A stretch of 43,157 bases of DNA from contig CAYUUU010000001.1 of NCBI GenBank assembly GCA_964448065.1, forward strand, positions 1 through 43,157. Reading direction: 5' to 3'. The position numbers were made by a program, and so were the translations under genes. Source of the stretch: an uncultured Gammaproteobacteria bacterium (lineage in GTDB: Bacteria; Patescibacteriota; Microgenomatia; UBA12405). Positions 23,801 to 40,952 of the stretch are shown here, piece after piece (position 1 is the first letter of the stretch; every line of letters begins with the position of its first letter). The notes below the pieces were generated by a model that saw only the letters and a list, made by a program, of their open reading frames with translations, made no database searches and was not told the DNA's origin.

Positions 23801-24109
23801 TTATTTTTCTCGGTGAATCCATTTTTTATCAATAGCTTCTTCTAAATTAATGCCTAAAAGATGGGCATTAACTATGGCCATTCCAATAACATCGGCTAAT
23901 TCTTTACCTAATTCTTGTTTGGATATTTCTTCAATTACGTATTTACTTTCTCGACACTTTTTCTGATGGATTAGAAGAGCTTGAGCAAATTCACCTACTT
24001 CTTCAAAAAGCTTAATTGCGGCAAAATCCTGAGTAAATTCAATTTGATGCCTTTTGCCATAATCAAAAGCATTTTTAACTATTTTTTGTTCTAGTATTTT
24101 GAAATTCAT
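23801..24109 (-). CDS. MazG-like nucleotide pyrophosphohydrolase domain protein
   Basis: 102 aa with EEVGEFAQA ... ELADVIGMAI helix-pair motifs. Confidence 0.5.
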   Translation of the reverse strand: MNFKILEQKIVKNAFDYGKRHQIEFTQDFAAIKLFEEVGEFAQALLIHQKKCRESKYVIEEISKQELGKELADVIGMAIVNAHLLGINLEEAIDKKWIHREK

Positions 24110-24136: not shown

Positions 24137-24856
24137 ATGATAGATACACACGCTCACTTAGACCAGATATTGTGCGACGTTGATAGGGGAATAAATAAAA
24201 TAATTTTAGCAGCATCTAATTTGGAAAATTCTAAAAATAACCTATTGTTAGCCAAAAAACATCCATATATTTTATTGCCTGCAGTTGGAATACACCCTCA
24301 AGAAATTGAGTCGTCCCCTGCCGAACTTAAAAAAATAGTGGAAGAAAAATATAAAGATATAGTAGCAATTGGAGAATGTGGACTAGATTTTTCAAGCGAT
24401 TATGATGAAAAATATCAATTGAAAATTTTTAAAATGCAAATAGAATTGGCTGAAAAATATGAAAAACCACTAATAATCCATGCTAGAAAAGCAGTTGATA
24501 AAACAATAGAAATTTTAAAAAATTATAAAAACCTATCAGGGGTGTTTCATTGCTATGCTGGAGGAAATAAAAGAATTAAAAAATTAATTGATTTGGGACC
24601 AGGTTGGTTTTTTGGAATTGATGGAAACTTAACTTATGAAATTGGACTGGCCGAAGTAGTAAAAAATATCCCAATGGATAGATTATTGATTGAAACTGAT
24701 TCTCCTTACCTAACCCCAGTTCCATTTAAAGGTGAAACAAATAGTCCTAAAAATGTGCTTTATATTTATAAAAAAGTGGCCGAAATTTGGGATAAAAGCT
24801 TTGAAGAAACAGAAAAAATAATTGATGGGAATGCAAAGAAACTATTTGGATTTTAA
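24137..24856 (+). CDS. tatD: TatD-family metal-dependent hydrolase/DNase
   Basis: MIDTHAHLD, GECGLD, IIHAR, ETDSPYL. Confidence 0.85.
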   Translation: MIDTHAHLDQILCDVDRGINKIILAASNLENSKNNLLLAKKHPYILLPAVGIHPQEIESSPAELKKIVEEKYKDIVAIGECGLDFSSDYDEKYQLKIFKMQIELAEKYEKPLIIHARKAVDKTIEILKNYKNLSGVFHCYAGGNKRIKKLIDLGPGWFFGIDGNLTYEIGLAEVVKNIPMDRLLIETDSPYLTPVPFKGETNSPKNVLYIYKKVAEIWDKSFEETEKIIDGNAKKLFGF

Positions 24857-24858
24857 TT

Positions 24859-24915
24859 AAAACCCACCCACCCCGCAATGGCGGGGCACCCTCCCTTAAG
24901 TAATGGAGGGCGATT
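24859..24915. repeat. GC-rich two-hairpin element (AAAACCC head, CCCCGC-aatg-GCGGGG, CCCTCC-cttaagtaat-GGAGGG)
   Basis: Read directly. Starts 2 nt after the tatD stop. Confidence 0.8.
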
Positions 24916-24923
24916 TTTATATT

Positions 24924-24994
24924 AAAACCACTCAGTCCCGATAAATCGGGACACTTGCCTGACGGCAGGCAGGTCTCCCCTTGATGAAAGGGAG
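24924..24994. repeat. GC-rich three-hairpin element (GTCCCG-ataaa-TCGGGAC, CTTGCCTG-acgg-CAGGCAGG, CTCCCC-ttgatgaaa-GGGAG)
   Basis: Read directly. The middle hairpin (24954-24974) is a degenerate copy of the 22-nt palindrome at 2823 and 3772. Confidence 0.8.
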
Positions 24995-24999
24995 CAGTA

Positions 25000-25239
25000 T
25001 TATAAGTATTCGGAAATAAGCGATTCCAAATCTTTGAGTGAGGGAAATTTATCGACAAGAGCAATTTCATTATCGATTAAAAGCACGGTAGAGCCCTGGA
25101 TGCCCATATTAATTACTTTGGTCATATCTTTGACATACTCAGGATCATAATCAATTTGAAGCCTTTTACAAAGAGTTTCAATATTGGCAAATAATTCTTT
25201 ACCTTTTGGGGTTCCTCGATCAAAAAGTTGGATTTTCAT
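25000..25239 (-). CDS. Thioredoxin_3-like small protein lacking the CxxC redox motif
   Basis: 79 aa. The layout matches small redox-active disulfide protein 2 (MKI..GxGCxxC..), but the motif position reads DRGTPKGKEL. Confidence 0.5.
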   Translation of the reverse strand: MKIQLFDRGTPKGKELFANIETLCKRLQIDYDPEYVKDMTKVINMGIQGSTVLLIDNEIALVDKFPSLKDLESLISEYL

Positions 25240-25343
25240 ATGTTTATTATAAACCCTCTACTTTAATTGTTTTTATATTACCTGATTTTAAATTAGGTAA
25301 TAGAATTCGTTTTAGAAATTACTAAAATAGTTTATAATTCGAT

Positions 25344-27362
25344 ATGGCAGAAAAAATATCAAACACAAAAAAAATTGATATAACTTATAAAGAATTTGAT
25401 TTAAATACATTTGATAAAGATGGTTATAATAAAAATGGATTTGATAAAGATGGTTATAATAAAAATGGATTTAATAAATTTGGTTTTAATAAAGAAACCC
25501 ATACATATTTTGATAAAAATGATTTTGATATGGGTGGAACAAACAGAAATACTAATACAAAATTTGGCTTAAATGGTTATGATATAGATGGTTATGATAT
25601 AGATGGTTATGATAGATACGGTTATAATAAATATGGATTCGATAGAAAAGGTTTTGATAAATTGGGGTTTAATAAAAATAGTATTAATAGGGATACTGGT
25701 AAAGAATTTGATTCAAAAGGATTTAATAAAGATGGTTATAATAAAAATGGTTACAATGTATATGGATTCGATAGATACGGTTACAATGCATATGGATTCG
25801 ACAGACATGGTTACAATAAGTATGGCATTAATAGAAAAGGTTTCGACAGGAATGGTATTAATAAAAATACTAATACGAAATTTAATTTAAATGGTTTTGA
25901 TAAAAATGGGTATGATAAGGATGGTTATAATAGAAATGGATTTGATAAAGATGGTTATGATAGAAATGGTTATAGTAGAAATGGTTATAATAAGGATGGT
26001 TATAATAAACATGGCATTAATAGAAAAGGTTTCGACAGGAATGGTATTAATAGAGATACTAATACGAAATTTAATTTAAATGGTTTTGATAAAGATGGGT
26101 ATGATAAAGATGGTTATGATAAAGATGGTTATGATAGAAATAGATTCGATAAAGATGGTTTTCATAGAGATGGATTTAATAAGGAGGATTTTAATAAATA
26201 TGGCATTAACAGAAAAGGTTTCGATAAAAATGGATTTGATATATTTGGCCGCAACCGAGAGACATTAACAAAATTTGATTTAAATGGTTTTGATCAAAAA
26301 GGTTTTGATAAAAATGGTGTTAATAGAGATACTAGTACGAAATTTAATTTAAATGGTTTTGATAAAGATGGGTATGATAAGGATGGTTATAATAAACATG
26401 GCATTAATAGAAAAGGTTTCGACAGGAATGGTATTAATAGAGATACTAATACGAAATTTAATTTAAATGGTTTTGATAAAGATGGGTATGATGAAGATGG
26501 GTATGATAAAGATGGTTATGATAAAGAAGGATATAATCACAATGATTTCAATAGAGACAATATTCATCGATTAACCAAAACTGAATATGATATAAAAGGT
26601 TTTAATCTTTATGGAATAGATAAAGATGGGTTTAACAGAGATACTGGTGAGATAGATGAAAATATAATATTAGTTAGACAATATTTAGAATCAAAAAATA
26701 GTAAAATTAAATTTGCCAAACAGAATAATATTAATATTGATGATTTAAATAAAATTTTAAAAATTGCTATTAAAATTTATCCTGTAATTAAAAGTCAGTT
26801 GGATGAAAAATCAAAGAAAACTGGAGAAATATTTTTAAATACTAGAAGAGAAATAGTTAAGGAACTGATTAGTGGCCAAAAAAATGTAGATGATTATTTG
26901 GAAAACGGAGCAATTGTTAAATGGGATGAATTGATGAAAATTGATTCATTTGATGATAAAAAACAATTAGTTAATATTTTTACTAAATGGTGTTCAAATA
27001 ATCAACATATAGATATAAAAAAATATTTTAAAATATTTTTACCAAATGATGCTAGTTATAATATAAATGAGGTTATTCTACAATTTGTAGATATGATGAC
27101 AAGAGCTAAACATGATAATAGTCTAACTTCATTAATAAAAAATCTTTATACTCAAAAAAGAGAATTGGAAACTTACAAAAAAACCTTTGAAAGAAAAGAA
27201 TTTTTAGGTATGAGTCTAAATATAAATGGTAAAAGTATAATTATTAATGACGAAATAATTAATCAAGCTTTTGAAAAAGTTAAAAAACAAGATAATTATA
27301 TTTGTTTTAAAACAGTAAGTGAAAAAATAATGGAGATTGTAAAAGAAAATAAAAATGATTAG
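25344..27362 (+). CDS. repeat protein: about 435 aa of 5-residue G-[FY]-[DN]-[KR]-x repeats plus a roughly 235-aa non-repetitive C-terminal domain
   Basis: Read from the translation (NGFDKDGYDKDGYNRNGFDKDGYDRNGY...). No signal peptide or TM segment. I recognise no family. Confidence 0.7.
   Translation: MAEKISNTKKIDITYKEFDLNTFDKDGYNKNGFDKDGYNKNGFNKFGFNKETHTYFDKNDFDMGGTNRNTNTKFGLNGYDIDGYDIDGYDRYGYNKYGFDRKGFDKLGFNKNSINRDTGKEFDSKGFNKDGYNKNGYNVYGFDRYGYNAYGFDRHGYNKYGINRKGFDRNGINKNTNTKFNLNGFDKNGYDKDGYNRNGFDKDGYDRNGYSRNGYNKDGYNKHGINRKGFDRNGINRDTNTKFNLNGFDKDGYDKDGYDKDGYDRNRFDKDGFHRDGFNKEDFNKYGINRKGFDKNGFDIFGRNRETLTKFDLNGFDQKGFDKNGVNRDTSTKFNLNGFDKDGYDKDGYNKHGINRKGFDRNGINRDTNTKFNLNGFDKDGYDEDGYDKDGYDKEGYNHNDFNRDNIHRLTKTEYDIKGFNLYGIDKDGFNRDTGEIDENIILVRQYLESKNSKIKFAKQNNINIDDLNKILKIAIKIYPVIKSQLDEKSKKTGEIFLNTRREIVKELISGQKNVDDYLENGAIVKWDELMKIDSFDDKKQLVNIFTKWCSNNQHIDIKKYFKIFLPNDASYNINEVILQFVDMMTRAKHDNSLTSLIKNLYTQKRELETYKKTFERKEFLGMSLNINGKSIIINDEIINQAFEKVKKQDNYICFKTVSEKIMEIVKENKND
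25822..26520 (+). repeat. higher-order tandem DNA repeat (period 189-198 nt) inside the repeat-protein gene
   Basis: ATGGCATTAA[T/C]AGAAAAGGTTTCGA recurs at 25822, 26011, 26200 and 26398. The copies at 26011 and 26398 look identical for roughly 110 nt by eye. Confidence 0.85.
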
Positions 27363-28195
27363 ATTTCTGACTTGGCGATGTGAACAGTGTTGTAGAGAAG
27401 TGAGGTAATGGTCATAGGACCGACGCCACCGGGAACTGGAGTAATGAAACTGGAAATCGGAGCAACTTGGTCAAAATCAAAATCGCCAGAAACTTTATTA
27501 TTGGAATCAGTAGCAAAACCAACATCAATAATGATGGCATCTTTTTTAATATATTCACTGGTAAAAAATCTTGGTTTACCAATTGAAGAAACTAAAATAT
27601 CAGCTTGTTGGCAAATTTCTTTTAGATTTTTAGTGAAAGAATGACAAATAGTAGTAGTAGCATTTTTGGATAAAAATAAGGCTGATAAAGGAATGGCCAC
27701 TTCAGAACTACGACCAATAATTACCGCATTTTTGCCGCTTAAATCAAGCTTATATTCTTCTAATAATTTTAAAATTCCAAGAGCAGTAGCCGAAACAATT
27801 GGCTGAGATTTTTTTTGAAATAAAAGACCTAGGTTTAAAGGATTTAGACCATCAGCATCTTTTTGAGGATTGATAAGGGACAATACTTTTGGAGTATCAA
27901 TTTGAGAAGGAAGTGGAAGTTGAACCATTAAAGCAGTGACATTTTTATCTTTATTTAAACGATCGATTAAATTTAAAACATCATCAGTAGTGCTGTTTTG
28001 ATCCAAGTGATGAACTGTACCACCAATACCAATTAAAGAAGCTTGATTTTGCTTCATGGAAACATATTTTAAACTGGCAGGATCGTTACCAACAATAATA
28101 ATATCCAAAATTGGATGTAAATCTAATTTTTTTATTTCTTCTTTTAAGAAATTAGTTGTTTTTTGAGATAGAGTTTTGCCGTCTAAAATTATCAT
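27359..28195 (-). CDS. folD: bifunctional methylenetetrahydrofolate dehydrogenase/methenyl-THF cyclohydrolase
   Basis: IILDGK..., ASLKYVSMKQ, VQLPLP, GRSSEVAIPL, TPVPGGVGPMT. Confidence 0.9.
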   Translation of the reverse strand: MIILDGKTLSQKTTNFLKEEIKKLDLHPILDIIIVGNDPASLKYVSMKQNQASLIGIGGTVHHLDQNSTTDDVLNLIDRLNKDKNVTALMVQLPLPSQIDTPKVLSLINPQKDADGLNPLNLGLLFQKKSQPIVSATALGILKLLEEYKLDLSGKNAVIIGRSSEVAIPLSALFLSKNATTTICHSFTKNLKEICQQADILVSSIGKPRFFTSEYIKKDAIIIDVGFATDSNNKVSGDFDFDQVAPISSFITPVPGGVGPMTITSLLYNTVHIAKSEI

Positions 28196-37015: not shown

Positions 37016-37780
37016 TTATTTTTTCTTGTTGTATTTGCGGCCAGTGAGGGCTTTGGATAAAGCTTCACGATAAGCAATTTTAGGTAATTTGTCTTGATTA
37101 GTCTGAAGATAAATTAAAACTTCATCTTTATGAAATTTAACTAGACTTCTGAGTATCCAAGAAACAGCTTTAGTAATTAAAATTTCTTTTTCTGATTTTA
37201 AATTTTCAATATTTTCAAAAGCTAATTTTGACAATCTTTGGTCGTCAGATTGACTTAAAGATTTAGTTAATAAAACTAGACTAGCTCGACGTTTATTAAT
37301 ATTAGAATTTTGATTAAATTGTTTTAAAATTTTTTCCCAAGCTGGCCAATTAGAAAGTAAAATTTCACTAGTAAAATTTGACTGACACAAAACATCATTT
37401 TCAGCCCAACCACAGGTATAATTTAACCATAAATCTAGATGTTTAGGATCGAAATTTTGAAGGACATTTTTTGATAATCCTAAAATTACAGCAGCAACAG
37501 CAATCTCAGTATAAGTGGTGCCATGTTGATAAAGAGAATCTAACAAATCAATAGTTTTAATTTCATCTAGATTGTTTTCTTTAATAATTTTTTTGGCAAG
37601 ATTTGTTATTTGGGCACTGGTAAAACCATGATAGATTTTGTCAGTACCAAGATAATTTTTAGGCCATTGATAGTCAGATTTGGAGTCTGGTTTTAATTGA
37701 TTAATATCTTTTAAAAGTTGGAGATGAAAAGAATTTTTTATTTTATTGTTTCTTTTTAGAGAGTTTTTTACCGATAACAT
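37016..37780 (-). CDS. AlkD-like DNA alkylation repair (HEAT-repeat glycosylase) family protein
   Basis: Matches my memory of B. cereus AlkD: GWAENDVLC (vs WWDSVDSI), NKRRASLVLL (vs WLQRAAIL), ITKAVSWILRSL (vs IQKAIGWVLREY), KIAYREALSK. Confidence 0.7.
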   Translation of the reverse strand: MLSVKNSLKRNNKIKNSFHLQLLKDINQLKPDSKSDYQWPKNYLGTDKIYHGFTSAQITNLAKKIIKENNLDEIKTIDLLDSLYQHGTTYTEIAVAAVILGLSKNVLQNFDPKHLDLWLNYTCGWAENDVLCQSNFTSEILLSNWPAWEKILKQFNQNSNINKRRASLVLLTKSLSQSDDQRLSKLAFENIENLKSEKEILITKAVSWILRSLVKFHKDEVLIYLQTNQDKLPKIAYREALSKALTGRKYNKKK

Positions 37781-40700
37781 ATATAGGAATAAGAAGAAGT
37801 AGTAACCACCACCAATTAATTAATTTTTCAGCAGTAGAAGAACCTAAAACATCACCAAGTTCTACTTCTGGAGTTGTAGTTGGATTAATTTCTTCTTCTA
37901 TATTAGCACCTAAAACTTCTGTAGAAAAACCTTCAGCTGGTTGATTAGGAGTAGTACCGGCAGCTCCAATAATAGTGCCAGTATTTACTTCATTACTGTC
38001 GCTACTTTGATTTTGAGCACCATCAACAGCTTTAACAATGAAATAATAGTTACCGATACCAAGACCTTTAACTGTGTAAGAAGTTATATTACCAACTCTA
38101 GCTCCATAAGGATGAATTCCTTGAACTGAACCATACCAAATAATGTAATCTTTAGCATCATCTATGGCATTCCAAGAAAGAGTGGCTGTACCACTGCCAA
38201 TATTATCCAAAATGAGAGTTGGAGAGATTGGAGAAGTACGATCGACATTTAAATCAATAGAAGCATCTTTAGCTCGACCACTTTGATCAAAAGCAACAAC
38301 TTTAACTGTCCAGCGACCTTCAATTAATTGATCAATTTCAACTTCAGTTGTTCCAGCACCGACAGTTTTGGAATAAGAATGTGAATTATCTAATTTCCAT
38401 TGAATTTCATATTTATCGATACCAGTATTATCTTTAGCAAATTCCCATTTAATTTTGGAAGTACTACCACTGGTTGGATTTGGATTAGCAGAAAGATTTT
38501 GTGGACTATATTCTAAATCTGTTTTATCCCATCTAATATTTCTAAAATCAATTACAGAATAATTACCGGCTTTATCGATAGCTCGATAATATAAATCATG
38601 ATTTCCTTCAGTTAAGGGTTTAATGGCAACTGAATAAGTTGTCCAAGAACCTTCAATTTGAGAATCCCATTGATATTCAATTTTATCTAAATTAGCATCA
38701 GTACTGGTCAAAGTTATTTCTGGTTGAGTCCAATACCAACCATTTTGACCATCTGGAGAGACTGGATTAACTGAAGATGAAATTGTTGGAACAGTATTAT
38801 CAATATTTAATTTTTTTAATTCACTCCAACCACTTTCATTACCAAATGAATCAACTGCTTTGACTCGCCAATAAAAACTAATAGTTTGGTTGCCACCAAC
38901 AGTTCTATAATTATTTTTTCCGGTATTTTCAGTATGAATTTTATTTTTAGCTTCACTATCTCTATAACTTTCATAAATGTAATGATCTACACCATTAACC
39001 TCAGTCCATGACTGTTTTGGATTTCCATTAACCAAGGCATCATTAAGTGGAAAAACAAGAGTTGGAGTGTTTAAACAAGAACTTGGAGTTCCAAAACATT
39101 GCCAATTATTTTCAACAGTACAAGAGCTAGAACAACCATCTCCATTTATAATATTCCCATCATCACATGTTTCATTTGAATCAAAAATACTATTTCCACA
39201 AATTGGAACATAACAAGCAGCAGTAGCATCACAGATTTTGTAACCACCAAAACCATTAGGAATAGAATTATTACTACCAAGATATCCACAAGTTGTTGGA
39301 CAAGTACCGGCTGGGGTATAAGTACAAACAGAATTATCTATAACTTCAGTATTAGTGTTAAAACTAGAATCATAATTTAAGGCTTTGGAATCAGTACAAA
39401 TTTTAGCTTTTTGGTGACAAGTATTATTTTCTAAATAAAATCCATCGGCAGCAGTTATTACATAATCTTCAGTCTGAGGTAATTTTAAAAAATTATCTAT
39501 TGCCCACCAAGGAATCTCTGAACTTATGCTTGGACGAACACAATTGTTTGAAGTTGTTGATTTTTCGTAAGCAATGGTTTTATTAAAATTTTCAGTTATA
39601 TATGTGGCAGGAATATAGGTTCTATTAATAATAGAAGTAGAAATTTTTTGTATAATTCTTGAACAAGGTTTAGTATTTTTGTCACTATAATAGTATATGT
39701 CTAGTGATGGACATTTACCAAATATGTTTTTATCTGCATATTTTGTTTCATAAACAGTAGAAATCACAGTACATGTTTTACCATCAATATTTGGAATACC
39801 ATTAGTACAATCAGCATAATGTTCTGGAACATCTATTATTATTCTGGTTGCGGTGAAATTTTTGGTTGGACAAGAATAATTACAATTTTGACTAAGAACT
39901 TCAAAATTTATGGAATCAATTTTTGAATAACTTCCAAATATTTCTTTTTCAAAAATAGCACTCCAAGTTCCAATAGTATCGTTATTTGATAATGTATAAG
40001 AACAAGAAACAAAATGACCATTAACAACAGGACAAGTTTTAATGGTATTACCATTGTTATCTTGAAAAACAATCCTTGACGAATAATAAACAGGATTTAA
40101 TATTTCCGCATAAACTGTTTCACCTTGGATATAAGAATATTTTTTAACTGTTAACGAAGGATCAGAATAAGTAACAATAAATAAAGTGAAATGGTTGAGA
40201 TTACTAGTGGTAGCAGTTAAATTATTTTCAGTGGTATTATCGGCAGTTTGAGCTGAATTAATTTGAGAAATTTCTTCGGCAAATTTAATGTCTATATCCT
40301 TTCCTTTTGAAGATTCTGGAATTGGAAGAGAAAGATTATAAGCAAAAGTACCATCGGTCATATCGGAAGTAATATCATAAGCTTTATCTGATAATGAACC
40401 AGTTTGTTGTACTTGTTCGGCGGTTAAATTAATTTCTTGAATTTTTATATTACCTGATTTTTCTGGTAATTTGGTAAAAACTATCTTTACTCCACTGTTT
40501 TGCGGAGCAACATATTCTTTATTTAATTGAACATTTTCAAAAGTCCAATTATTAGTAGTTTGCTCGACTAAAACAGGAATTTCAGTTGGAGTAAATGAGA
40601 TCGTAGGTGATAGATCGTCGATCGTAGATGGAATTGGGGTTGATGTTGGAGTTATTATTTGTTGTGGTTCTGGAGTTAGTTCTGGTGTTGGAGTAATTGT

Positions 40701-40952
40701 AGATTCTATGGTTGGTGTAATTGTTTCTGTTGGTGTAGTTTCTGGAGTAATAGTTGGTTCTATAGTTGGTTGTATGGTTGGTTCTGGAGTTATAGTTGGA
40801 GTAATTATTTCAGTTGGAGTGGCTTCTTCGGCATAAACTGGTTGAGTAGCTAATAAAAATGGAACAAAAGAATTTAATAATAAAGATAAATTTGCAACTA
40901 TAGCTATAGCTTTTTTAATAACTTTTATTCTTAACATAAAATTACAAAACAT
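37743..40952 (-). CDS. giant surface protein: signal peptide, Thr/Pro-rich repeats, Cys-rich (DUF4215/Myxococcus-type) repeat, Fn3/Ig-like domains, C-terminal TM anchor
   Basis: Signal peptide ending VYAEE. ITPTITPEPTIQPTIEPTITPETTP. CGNSIFDSNETCDDGNIINGDGCSSSC. YRAIDKAGN-type Ig domains. C-terminal WWWLLLLLIPIYVIGKKLSKKKQ. Confidence 0.65.
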   Translation of the reverse strand: MFCNFMLRIKVIKKAIAIVANLSLLLNSFVPFLLATQPVYAEEATPTEIITPTITPEPTIQPTIEPTITPETTPTETITPTIESTITPTPELTPEPQQIITPTSTPIPSTIDDLSPTISFTPTEIPVLVEQTTNNWTFENVQLNKEYVAPQNSGVKIVFTKLPEKSGNIKIQEINLTAEQVQQTGSLSDKAYDITSDMTDGTFAYNLSLPIPESSKGKDIDIKFAEEISQINSAQTADNTTENNLTATTSNLNHFTLFIVTYSDPSLTVKKYSYIQGETVYAEILNPVYYSSRIVFQDNNGNTIKTCPVVNGHFVSCSYTLSNNDTIGTWSAIFEKEIFGSYSKIDSINFEVLSQNCNYSCPTKNFTATRIIIDVPEHYADCTNGIPNIDGKTCTVISTVYETKYADKNIFGKCPSLDIYYYSDKNTKPCSRIIQKISTSIINRTYIPATYITENFNKTIAYEKSTTSNNCVRPSISSEIPWWAIDNFLKLPQTEDYVITAADGFYLENNTCHQKAKICTDSKALNYDSSFNTNTEVIDNSVCTYTPAGTCPTTCGYLGSNNSIPNGFGGYKICDATAACYVPICGNSIFDSNETCDDGNIINGDGCSSSCTVENNWQCFGTPSSCLNTPTLVFPLNDALVNGNPKQSWTEVNGVDHYIYESYRDSEAKNKIHTENTGKNNYRTVGGNQTISFYWRVKAVDSFGNESGWSELKKLNIDNTVPTISSSVNPVSPDGQNGWYWTQPEITLTSTDANLDKIEYQWDSQIEGSWTTYSVAIKPLTEGNHDLYYRAIDKAGNYSVIDFRNIRWDKTDLEYSPQNLSANPNPTSGSTSKIKWEFAKDNTGIDKYEIQWKLDNSHSYSKTVGAGTTEVEIDQLIEGRWTVKVVAFDQSGRAKDASIDLNVDRTSPISPTLILDNIGSGTATLSWNAIDDAKDYIIWYGSVQGIHPYGARVGNITSYTVKGLGIGNYYFIVKAVDGAQNQSSDSNEVNTGTIIGAAGTTPNQPAEGFSTEVLGANIEEEINPTTTPEVELGDVLGSSTAEKLINWWWLLLLLIPIYVIGKKLSKKKQ
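40598..40633. repeat. GATC/CGAT-rich element GAGATCGTAGGTGATAGATCGTCGATCGTAGATGG inside the giant surface-protein gene
   Basis: Shares GATAGATCGTCGATC and GATCGTAGAT with 36465-36500. Translated in frame as PSTIDDLSPTIS. Confidence 0.7.

Follow-up and report, generated by a model that had tools for sequence, protein, structure and literature searches.

A widespread five-residue repeat array joined to an undescribed C-terminal domain in a protein from a Patescibacteria genome

Here we describe a two-module protein of 672 amino acids (aa) that is encoded in a 43,157-nucleotide (nt) stretch of DNA from an uncultured bacterium of the Patescibacteriota (contig CAYUUU010000001.1 of assembly GCA_964448065.1; hereafter, the window). 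Its N-terminal module is a long array of five-residue repeats of the type G-[YF]-[DN]-[KR]-x, a promiscuous module that is widespread in bacteria and represents a large, unstudied repeat class. Its C-terminal module is a new, previously undescribed domain. The reading that we favour, at a little short of even chances, is that this is an accessory protein, probably cytoplasmic, in which the pentads build a stiff, length-adjustable ribbon or rod whose role is to present or space a DNA-binding head at the C terminus.

The gene occupies positions 25344–27362 of the forward strand and is a complete coding sequence with an ATG start. An initial annotation, made from the sequence alone, had delimited the same 672-aa frame, in agreement with the list of open reading frames (ORFs), and homologues share the two-module architecture. 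The exact protein was not on record in a database look-up, and the nearest database protein is 37% identical. No hydrophobic segment was found in the protein; the highest 19-residue Kyte–Doolittle mean is 0.72, so there is no transmembrane (TM) helix or classical signal peptide, as had been predicted.

The N-terminal module (aa 20–435; 25401–26648, +), as defined by segmentation, autocorrelation and modelling with AlphaFold2, has a strong five-residue period. Over residues 20–436, identity at lag 5 is 0.36 compared with 0.11 ± 0.015 in shuffled sequences, which upholds the periodicity that had been noticed by eye, and additional autocorrelation peaks lie at lags of 10, 38, 63 and 129. Cutting the array at each Gly yields 49 units of exactly five residues (G-[YFI]-[DN]-[KR]-x, in runs of 2–10). 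Glycine occupies the first position in 49 of 49 units, followed by Y, F or I (23, 21 and 5), D or N (29 and 18), K or R (26 and 15) and finally D, N, Y or K. The strict form G[FY][DN][KR]x is matched by 39 of these, and around five degenerate pentads occur besides. The 70–80 units estimated in the initial annotation were thus too many, and the run had been called ‘almost uninterrupted’ although units of 13 residues break it about ten times. In composition the array is rich in N (16%), D (16%), G (15%) and K (12%), with 18% aromatic residues, and its net charge is +5 (77 K and R against 72 D and E). Three ORFs of 62–95 aa in a second frame of the array (25603–25890, 25891–26079 and 26080–26268, +; for example, MVLIKMGMI...) are by-products of the repeat and not genes.

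The ten 13-residue punctuation units (39 nt each; 25482–26666, +), identified by segmentation, have the consensus G-[IV]-N-[RK]-x-T-x-T-K-[FY]-[ND]-x-x in this protein and GIHxxTGTxYDxxG across the family. They begin at aa 47, 65, 113, 171, 234, 302, 325, 363, 406 and 429 (nt 25482, 25536, 25680, 25854, 26043, 26247, 26316, 26430, 26559 and 26628) and are therefore 18 to 68 aa apart; the regular spacing of 63–66 aa that had been described applies to the four central copies and fails elsewhere. One 13-mer plus ten pentads makes up a 63-aa super-repeat, which Tandem Repeats Finder detects as a 189-nt period over 25807–26557 (+; 3.9 copies, 74% matches). The block HGINRKGFDRNGINRDTNTKFNLNGFDKDGY begins at nt 25821/25822, 26010/26011, 26199/26200 and 26397/26398, at the four positions first noted (25822, 26011, 26200 and 26398). 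Pairwise, super-repeat copies 1, 2 and 4 share 78–86% DNA identity, and copy 3 (nt 26199) shares just 57–59% with them. The final 13-mer of the array (GFNRDTGEIDENI) leads directly into the conserved T-G-E-x-D entry motif of the C-terminal domain.

A search for maximal exact repeats found a 116-nt exact duplication within the array, with copy 1 at 25990–26105 (+) and copy 2 at 26377–26492 (+), 387 nt downstream; the identity of two copies over about 110 nt had been seen previously. A duplication of this length could confuse short-read assemblers, and a metagenome-assembled genome is the probable source of the window. We nonetheless think it highly improbable that misassembly, by collapse or chimaerism of repeats, created the array or its copy number: the frame stays open through 2 kilobases (kb); most copies have diverged enough (57–86% DNA identity) to have a unique placement; and the architecture recurs, with arrays of comparable length, in dozens of independent homologues from other assemblies. 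The potential for length variability, also anticipated, is seen among these homologues. Two proteins with C-terminal domains that are 99% identical (P0060 and P0017) have arrays that differ by 48 residues, and two others with C-terminal domains that are 96% identical (P0003 and P0001) have arrays that differ by 11, so array length is evolutionarily labile. The repeat periods are multiples of 15 nt, and recombination would consequently alter array length while keeping the frame.

In a search of 5.8 billion proteins, 1084 matched the pentad class at E ≤ 1e-3; as these come from 8000 candidates that were scored, the class comprises at least 1084 proteins. The E-values from phmmer for array homologues (1e-111 to 1e-49) are inflated by repetitiveness. 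We derived pentad statistics and domain architectures from the best 120 of the 1084 matches, which contain 5614 exact pentads (15–81 per protein, with a median of 46). Glycine is followed by Y (52%) or F (32%), then D (59%) or N (32%), R (36%) or K (29%) and a last position of D, E or N. The source names of pentad-array proteins include TM7, Chloroflexia, Riflebacteria, Bacteroidota, Elusimicrobiota, Butyrivibrio and Enorma. A TM segment is absent from 91 of the 120, and the array usually begins within the first 10–45 residues and is followed by another domain: UvrD-type helicases (which score as GajB in PADLOC), a DEDDh exonuclease, HNH or restriction endonuclease (REase)-like domains, DarT, sigma-70 region 4, an AraC helix–turn–helix (HTH), DUF6273, kinase, subtilisin or the C-terminal domain described here. 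In 27 of the 120 the array instead follows a TM segment, as in VirB10-like proteins with the order TM–array–TrbI (for example, P0057, with a GYD array between TM helix and TrbI domain) and in zinc-ribbon plus polytopic membrane proteins. Other envelope or periplasmic contexts include OmpA–VWA, PEGA and a lipoprotein with a HECT domain. Arrays N-terminal to DarT (P0120, E 7e-38), HNH/type II REase-like, DEDDh exonuclease and GajB-like UvrD helicase domains (P0120, P0050, P0048 and P0018) give architectures that are reminiscent, by analogy, of sensor–effector defence proteins.

No profile search assigned the repeats to a described family. Pfam gave nothing below E = 0.5 for the repeat protein, and NCBIfam nothing meaningful (DotG/IcmE at 15 bits against a cut-off of 750, E = 0.004; penta_MxKDx at 13 against 41). 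Searches of PDB sequences with the single protein and with a profile of the alignment of the C-terminal domain (A1) returned only matches at E > 0.1; the top phmmer match is a designed pentapeptide-repeat protein (4yfo, E = 1). In the literature we found no description of the motif strings, of GYD repeats or of such repeats in VirB10 or DotG. The only curated model that reacts to the pentad class is PF25296, ‘Decapeptide repeat region’, for which we found no function, structure or literature. With a cut-off of 45 bits, it scores 46.1 over the GFNxxGFNxx arrays of P0086, a lipoprotein whose C terminus is HECT-like (28 bits for an isolated 80-aa stretch of that array), and remains below threshold on the GYD/GFD arrays of P0048, P0029 and P0004 (24–32 bits). 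The present protein goes undetected: PF25296 has no match at E ≤ 10 to the whole protein, to aa 184–266 or to an idealized GYDKD/GFNRD array. The model appears to capture not the charged G-[YF]-[DN]-[KR]-x type but a GFN subtype rich in Ala and Gln, and the repeat protein is at best an undetected cousin. A possible identity of PF25296 with the RRBP1/p180 decapeptide was rejected, as an RRBP1-like decapeptide array was unmatched and a GFNAQ array was matched. The repeat had been called novel; this holds only in the sense that it is unstudied, as the same class recurs in at least 1084 proteins and PF25296 matches one relative.

AlphaFold2 modelled the full-length protein, from a 35-sequence alignment of full-length homologues, with a mean predicted local distance difference test (pLDDT) score of 83.1; within the array the score is 85–95 over aa 20–260 and 340–435 and 47–75 around aa 260–340. 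Residues 126–265 modelled alone reached a pLDDT of 95.5 and a predicted template modelling (pTM) score of 0.66. In the array, DSSP assigns neither helices nor any strand of at least three residues, only isolated bridges, which pair position 2 of one pentad with position 3 of the next (i/i+5–6; for example, Y157/N163, I162/D168, F167/N173, Y205/S211, Y220/N226 and F230/N236). The bridges T66–N67/T72–K73 in the first 13-mer suggest that the 13-residue unit would form a slightly longer hairpin than the pentads do. From the bridge pattern, and because three-residue hairpin loops (a type I turn with a G1 bulge) prefer Gly at the last loop position, we infer that the array would be a continuous antiparallel ladder of two-residue [YF]-[DN] strands connected by three-residue [KR]-[DN]-G turns. 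Such a ribbon would be narrow and single-layered, and each pentad would add roughly 4.8 Å, or one strand spacing, to its length. Both of its faces would display alternating aromatic and Asp/Asn side chains, and its edges would carry Lys/Arg and acidic residues.

The structure prediction that had been suggested as a check gave a confident model with no counterpart in the PDB. Foldseek searches of the full model against PDB and BFVD found no match at E ≤ 1e-3, and a search of the repeat-only model against 350,542 PDB chains found none at E ≤ 10. Either the array adopts a fold that lacks a solved representative, or AlphaFold2 is over-confident on a repeat. A more far-reaching proposal, which we regard as possible and hold only tentatively, is that two-residue strands and three-residue turns make the pentad array a single-layer ribbon with a new fold. 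Bacteria of many phyla would then use this rod or sensor, tunable in length, as a plug-in that precedes helicase, nuclease, DarT-toxin, HTH and type IV secretion system (T4SS) VirB10 modules, and the present protein, with its HTH-headed C-terminal domain, would be a founding example.

The absence of PDB matches would also be expected if the array were an intrinsically disordered sticker-and-spacer region, acting as a flexible tether or a driver of condensation, with the AlphaFold2 model an artefact of repetitiveness. The composition is that of a near-neutral, aromatic-rich polyampholyte, the model is nearly devoid of regular secondary structure, and the pLDDT falls around aa 260–340. However, all five models of aa 126–265 score 94–95.5 with a shallow alignment of 20 sequences, and the Gly and the aromatic and Asx residues keep an exact five-residue register across distant phyla, beyond a conservation of composition. 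In addition, YD/Rhs and cell-wall-binding repeats use [YF]-[DN]-x-x-G as a classic motif for tight turns. On balance we regard disorder as unlikely, albeit credible.

The likeness to YD/Rhs repeats and to choline- or glucan-binding YG repeats is confined to this YDxxG core. In its family consensus (x-T-G-T-x-Y-D-x-x-G), the 13-residue unit resembles a YD hairpin in miniature, but those repeats span about 20 residues (GxxxRYxYDxxGR[LI]) with real β-strands between the turns, whereas the period here, of 5 or 13 residues, leaves no strand in between; neither RHS_repeat (PF05593) nor CW_binding_1 was reported in the Pfam scan at E ≤ 10. The central single-layer sheet of Borrelia OspA, elastin (VPGVG) and flagelliform silk (GPGGX) are sheets or spirals of tight turns without a conventional hydrophobic core that can serve as rods or springs, and are conceptual analogues of the ribbon that we predict. 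None is related in sequence. Foldseek found no PDB match, OspA included, and elastin and silk, which are extracellular eukaryotic proteins, lack the aromatic–Asx–basic pattern.

Two further readings had been raised as speculation in the initial annotation, and our results do not support them. In the first, here put more broadly, Asp/Asn-rich turns ending in Gly would chelate calcium or another cation and fold only when metal-bound, as in RTX β-rolls or DxDxDG loops. The protein has 35 [DN]-x-[DN]-G and 16 D-x-D-G strings, and position 3 is D or N in 47 of 49 pentads; but a motif scan found no canonical D.D.DG and no GG.G.D, Lys or Arg is present in every pentad (with a net positive charge overall), no EF-hand, RTX/HemolysinCabind or TSP3 family was matched in the Pfam scan, and most family members reside in the cytoplasm, a compartment with little free Ca2+. 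Metal binding is accordingly improbable.

In the second, the five-residue period was likened to that of classical pentapeptide-repeat proteins (PF00805 clan), in which long arrays of A-[DN]-L-x-x form a right-handed quadrilateral β-helix that in Qnr and MfpA mimics DNA. The resemblance goes little beyond the period and the length of the arrays. The weakest of hints come from the matches to 4yfo and DotG/IcmE noted above, whereas no Pentapeptide family (PF00805, PF13599, PF13576 or PF01469) appears in the Pfam scan even at E ≤ 10 and the motif [ACSTV][DN][LFM]xx (A[DN]Lxx-type) has 0 matches in aa 20–435. A bulky aromatic directly follows the Gly; the central hydrophobic residue of pentapeptide-repeat proteins comes two positions after a small one. 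The predicted hydrogen-bond register also differs (bridges at i/i+5–6 in the model, not at the i/i+20 of a coil of 20 residues), Foldseek matched no PDB entry with the predicted structure even though many Rfr-fold structures are there, and the array is not acidic. These tests effectively refute a Qnr/MfpA-type structure, which we find barely credible.

Legionella DotG has a pentapeptide-repeat region that has been proposed to form β-helices in the T4SS stalk (bioRxiv 10.1101/312009; PMC6761968). This region sits where VirB10-like relatives of our protein carry the GYD array, between TM helix and TrbI; we rejected DotG as an instance of the same repeat, because its repeats are classical pentapeptide-repeat β-helices and it is an analogue by position only. 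A ‘DotG/IcmE/VirB10 family protein’ on a Photobacterium damselae plasmid (L087; NZ_CP090497.1, 21757–26643) was likewise rejected as a pentad array. It contains more than 10 near-identical, Cys-containing repeats of about 47 aa (…GADGFNSEHCNRQGLNEDGELCKTPKIG…), within which only scattered G-[FL]-N-x-x pentads occur, and a short GYD-like stretch before a TrbI-like C terminus.

The C-terminal domain (aa 436–672; 26649–27359, +) is delimited by alignment A1, profile search and AlphaFold2 secondary structure. The initial annotation had correctly described these approximately 235 residues as non-repetitive but also as unrecognizable, whereas we find a conserved domain family. The domain aligns over its full length, at 17–28% identity, with the C termini of about 30 of the 120 array homologues, and BLASTP recovers more than 20 proteins over domain residues 1–235 at E values of 9e-25 to 1e-7. 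Gly, Ala and Cys at aa 435, 642 and 654 (G3, A210 and C222 in A1 numbering) are invariant in A1, and the T-G-E-x-D entry motif at the start of the domain is conserved. The predicted structure is all-helical apart from one β-hairpin (aa 624–633). When 1.84 billion cluster representatives were searched with a profile built from 17 sequences, 214 clusters matched at E ≤ 1e-3, of which 60 reached E ≤ 1e-30; the family is hence genuine but rare. No Pfam or PHROG family matches the domain, and no relative of it was found in species-representative genomes.

The domain occurs both with and without the array, which the initial annotation had proposed to look for. Among the 150 best of the 214 representatives, 52 carry at least 5 pentads, 56 are proteins of at least 400 aa with another N-terminal region, and 42 are short proteins (stand-alone or fragments). 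Of five proteins from this second group that were scanned, three (P0145, P0151 and P0161) have DUF4116 repeats above the Pfam cut-off and two (P0134 and P0170) have weak, sub-threshold matches. Because at least three proteins fuse the domain to DUF4116 repeats instead of pentads, these two unrelated types of repeat are interchangeable in front of it.

The first approximately 40 residues of the domain (ILVRQYLESKNSKIKFAKQNNINIDDLNKILKIA) form three helices in the model and contain a probable HTH (aa 439–478; 26658–26777, +). P0217 is a GIY-YIG protein that carries three HTH_Tnp_1 repeats, and comparison of A1 with its HTH_28/HTH_23 segment by hhalign gave E = 8.7e-5 and a probability of 60%. 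The DeoR DNA-binding domain 7bhy is matched weakly both by sequence profile and by Foldseek, and KorA and FocB are further weak PDB matches of the domain. The C-terminal domain probably opens with a transposase-type HTH and is putatively DNA-binding. The likeness is to the OrfA-type HTH of IS3-family transposases (HTH_Tnp_1/HTH_28/HTH_23) and ends there: the remaining approximately 190 residues have no counterpart in those proteins, and there is no DDE or other catalytic domain.

The window belongs to the Patescibacteria (candidate phyla radiation, CPR): its MetRS is up to 80% identical to that of metagenome-assembled genomes of Candidatus Shapirobacteria. The neighbouring genes are housekeeping genes (GatA/B, FemAB, UvrD, MurJ, MetRS, TatD, FolD, MetAP and POR), and the order MurJ–MetRS–TatD–thioredoxin-like–FolD–MetAP–methyltransferase is kept in related loci. 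The repeat gene lies between a thioredoxin-fold gene (25000–25239, −) and folD (27359–28195, −), which form the left and right borders of a ‘slot’ (25240–27358) whose content, according to synteny, tblastn and composition, is missing from related Shapirobacteria loci. The repeat protein had no tblastn match in any of 80 related loci. We tabulated the slot in 40 loci (L001–L040): the border genes are 20–60 nt apart in L001, L008 and L009, and the same gap is filled elsewhere by 0.3–3.2 kb of unrelated cargo, so the repeat gene occupies a variable slot. As judged by eye from translations, this cargo includes HD-domain-like (L002), α/β-hydrolase-like (L003), GNAT-like acetyltransferase (L006 and L034), inositol-monophosphatase-like and other (L025 and L033), and signal-peptidase-like and secreted proteins (L031).

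The composition of the gene also deviates from its surroundings. The GC content is 26.1% in the array and 20.7% in the C-terminal domain, compared with 30% for the window and 30–32% for TatD and FolD. Arginine codons are 74% AGA in the array (the rest AGG, CGA and CGC) and AGA in 6 of 6 cases in the C-terminal domain; CGT is never used in either and accounts for 38% in neighbouring genes. The variable slot, the deviant composition and the only 37% identity of the nearest protein support horizontal acquisition, and the repeat gene is probably an accessory gene obtained in this way. Homologues elsewhere are also found amid housekeeping genes. In two loci, ORFs of about 141–147 aa directly flank two repeat-protein homologues (L081, 9856–10281; L082, 3547–3990 and 7591–8028); the downstream copies in the two loci are 30% identical (E 5e-12) and the two paralogues in L082 are 49% identical. 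This ORF, which is absent from L084 and L086, may be a subfamily-specific partner. A 662-aa ORF upstream in L082, considered as a relative of the C-terminal domain, proved unrelated.

The slot and the company that the array keeps raise the possibility that the array senses or binds a periodic ligand at many sites along its surface, be it a polysaccharide, a foreign protein or single-stranded nucleic acid, and so recruits or activates the attached domain, as anti-phage repeat sensors do. It would fit with such a role that the array stands N-terminal to DNA-acting or defence-type effectors (GajB-scoring UvrD, DEDDh exonuclease, HNH/type II REase-like and DarT), that aromatic, Asx and basic positions are strictly kept across phyla and that the gene sits in an accessory slot. 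However, the array is also found in periplasmic and envelope contexts (VirB10/TrbI, OmpA–VWA, PEGA and the HECT lipoprotein), where DNA sensing is unlikely; PADLOC gave no match for the repeat protein; no defence genes adjoin it, its neighbours being MetRS, TatD, FolD and MetAP; and we found no relatives in viral contigs (whole protein) or in phage records (tblastn with the C-terminal domain). We consider a sensor unlikely.

This leads us back to the two-module accessory protein with a ribbon-like array. The array would act as a stiff spacer or scaffold that presents, spaces or multimerizes the C-terminal DNA-binding head, the 13-residue units would punctuate the ribbon as slightly longer hairpins, and recombination between repeats would change its length. 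Elsewhere, the same array precedes helicase, nuclease or toxin domains, or bridges the membrane anchor and TrbI in VirB10-like proteins. By analogy, a rod or spacer role would mirror the way in which the array links other effector domains and its DotG-like position in VirB10-like proteins. Several points weigh against this interpretation. The fold of the array is a prediction, and AlphaFold2 can be over-confident on perfect short repeats; the ribbon geometry was drawn from DSSP strings and textbook loop preferences; and no two-pentad alternation of sequence, which would have been an independent sign of a decapeptide structural period, was found across the family, in which pentad identity at lags 1 and 2 is about equal. 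The HTH assignment is weak, as no Pfam HTH family matches the protein directly and the hhalign probability is no more than 60%. No conserved operon or neighbourhood around the homologues points to a pathway, and the approximately 145-aa partner ORF is absent from the window. Finally, ‘spacer or scaffold’ is the default reading for promiscuous repeats, and it leaves the strict retention of aromatic, Asx and basic residues unexplained.

Other features of the region are of lesser note. Immediately upstream of the ATG of the repeat gene are the promoter-like hexamers TTTAGA-16-TATAAT (25311–25338, +), identified by a consensus scan only; this is weak evidence, as the same scan finds no more promoter-like sites in the region than expected from shuffled sequence. 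The 79-aa thioredoxin-fold-like protein at the left border of the slot has DRGTPKGK where its homologue in L038 has GSGCSTCK, and thus lacks the CxxC motif; the Cys-less form is kept at 58–78% identity in related Shapirobacteria loci and has no Pfam match at 1e-5. A 107-aa ORF of odd composition (24747–25070, −) that overlaps this gene and the 3′ end of tatD, on the other strand or in another frame, is probably spurious. Between MetRS and TatD, a 102-aa ORF (23801–24109, −) shows by eye a MazG-like EEVGEF...ELADVIG pattern and also lacks a Pfam match at 1e-5; as it is found in just 3 of the 40 tabulated loci (L006, L033 and L037), it is another accessory insertion. A 1069-aa protein (37743–40952, −) with fn3, DUF4215 and DUF4998-like matches is probably a large surface protein of the CPR bacterium.

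The value of the finding lies mainly in structure and annotation. If the prediction is true, a very simple five-residue repeat encodes a regular fold that has no counterpart in the PDB and that is already present, unnoticed, in more than 1000 bacterial proteins, some of them VirB10 homologues of the T4SS and others fused to helicases, nucleases and toxins. A structure would add a repeat architecture for protein design and would account for a type of ‘low-complexity’ region that recurs and that annotation pipelines now pass over. In this genome, the protein represents an accessory gene in a variable CPR slot and brings to light a new, putative DNA-binding domain that pairs with two kinds of repeat array.

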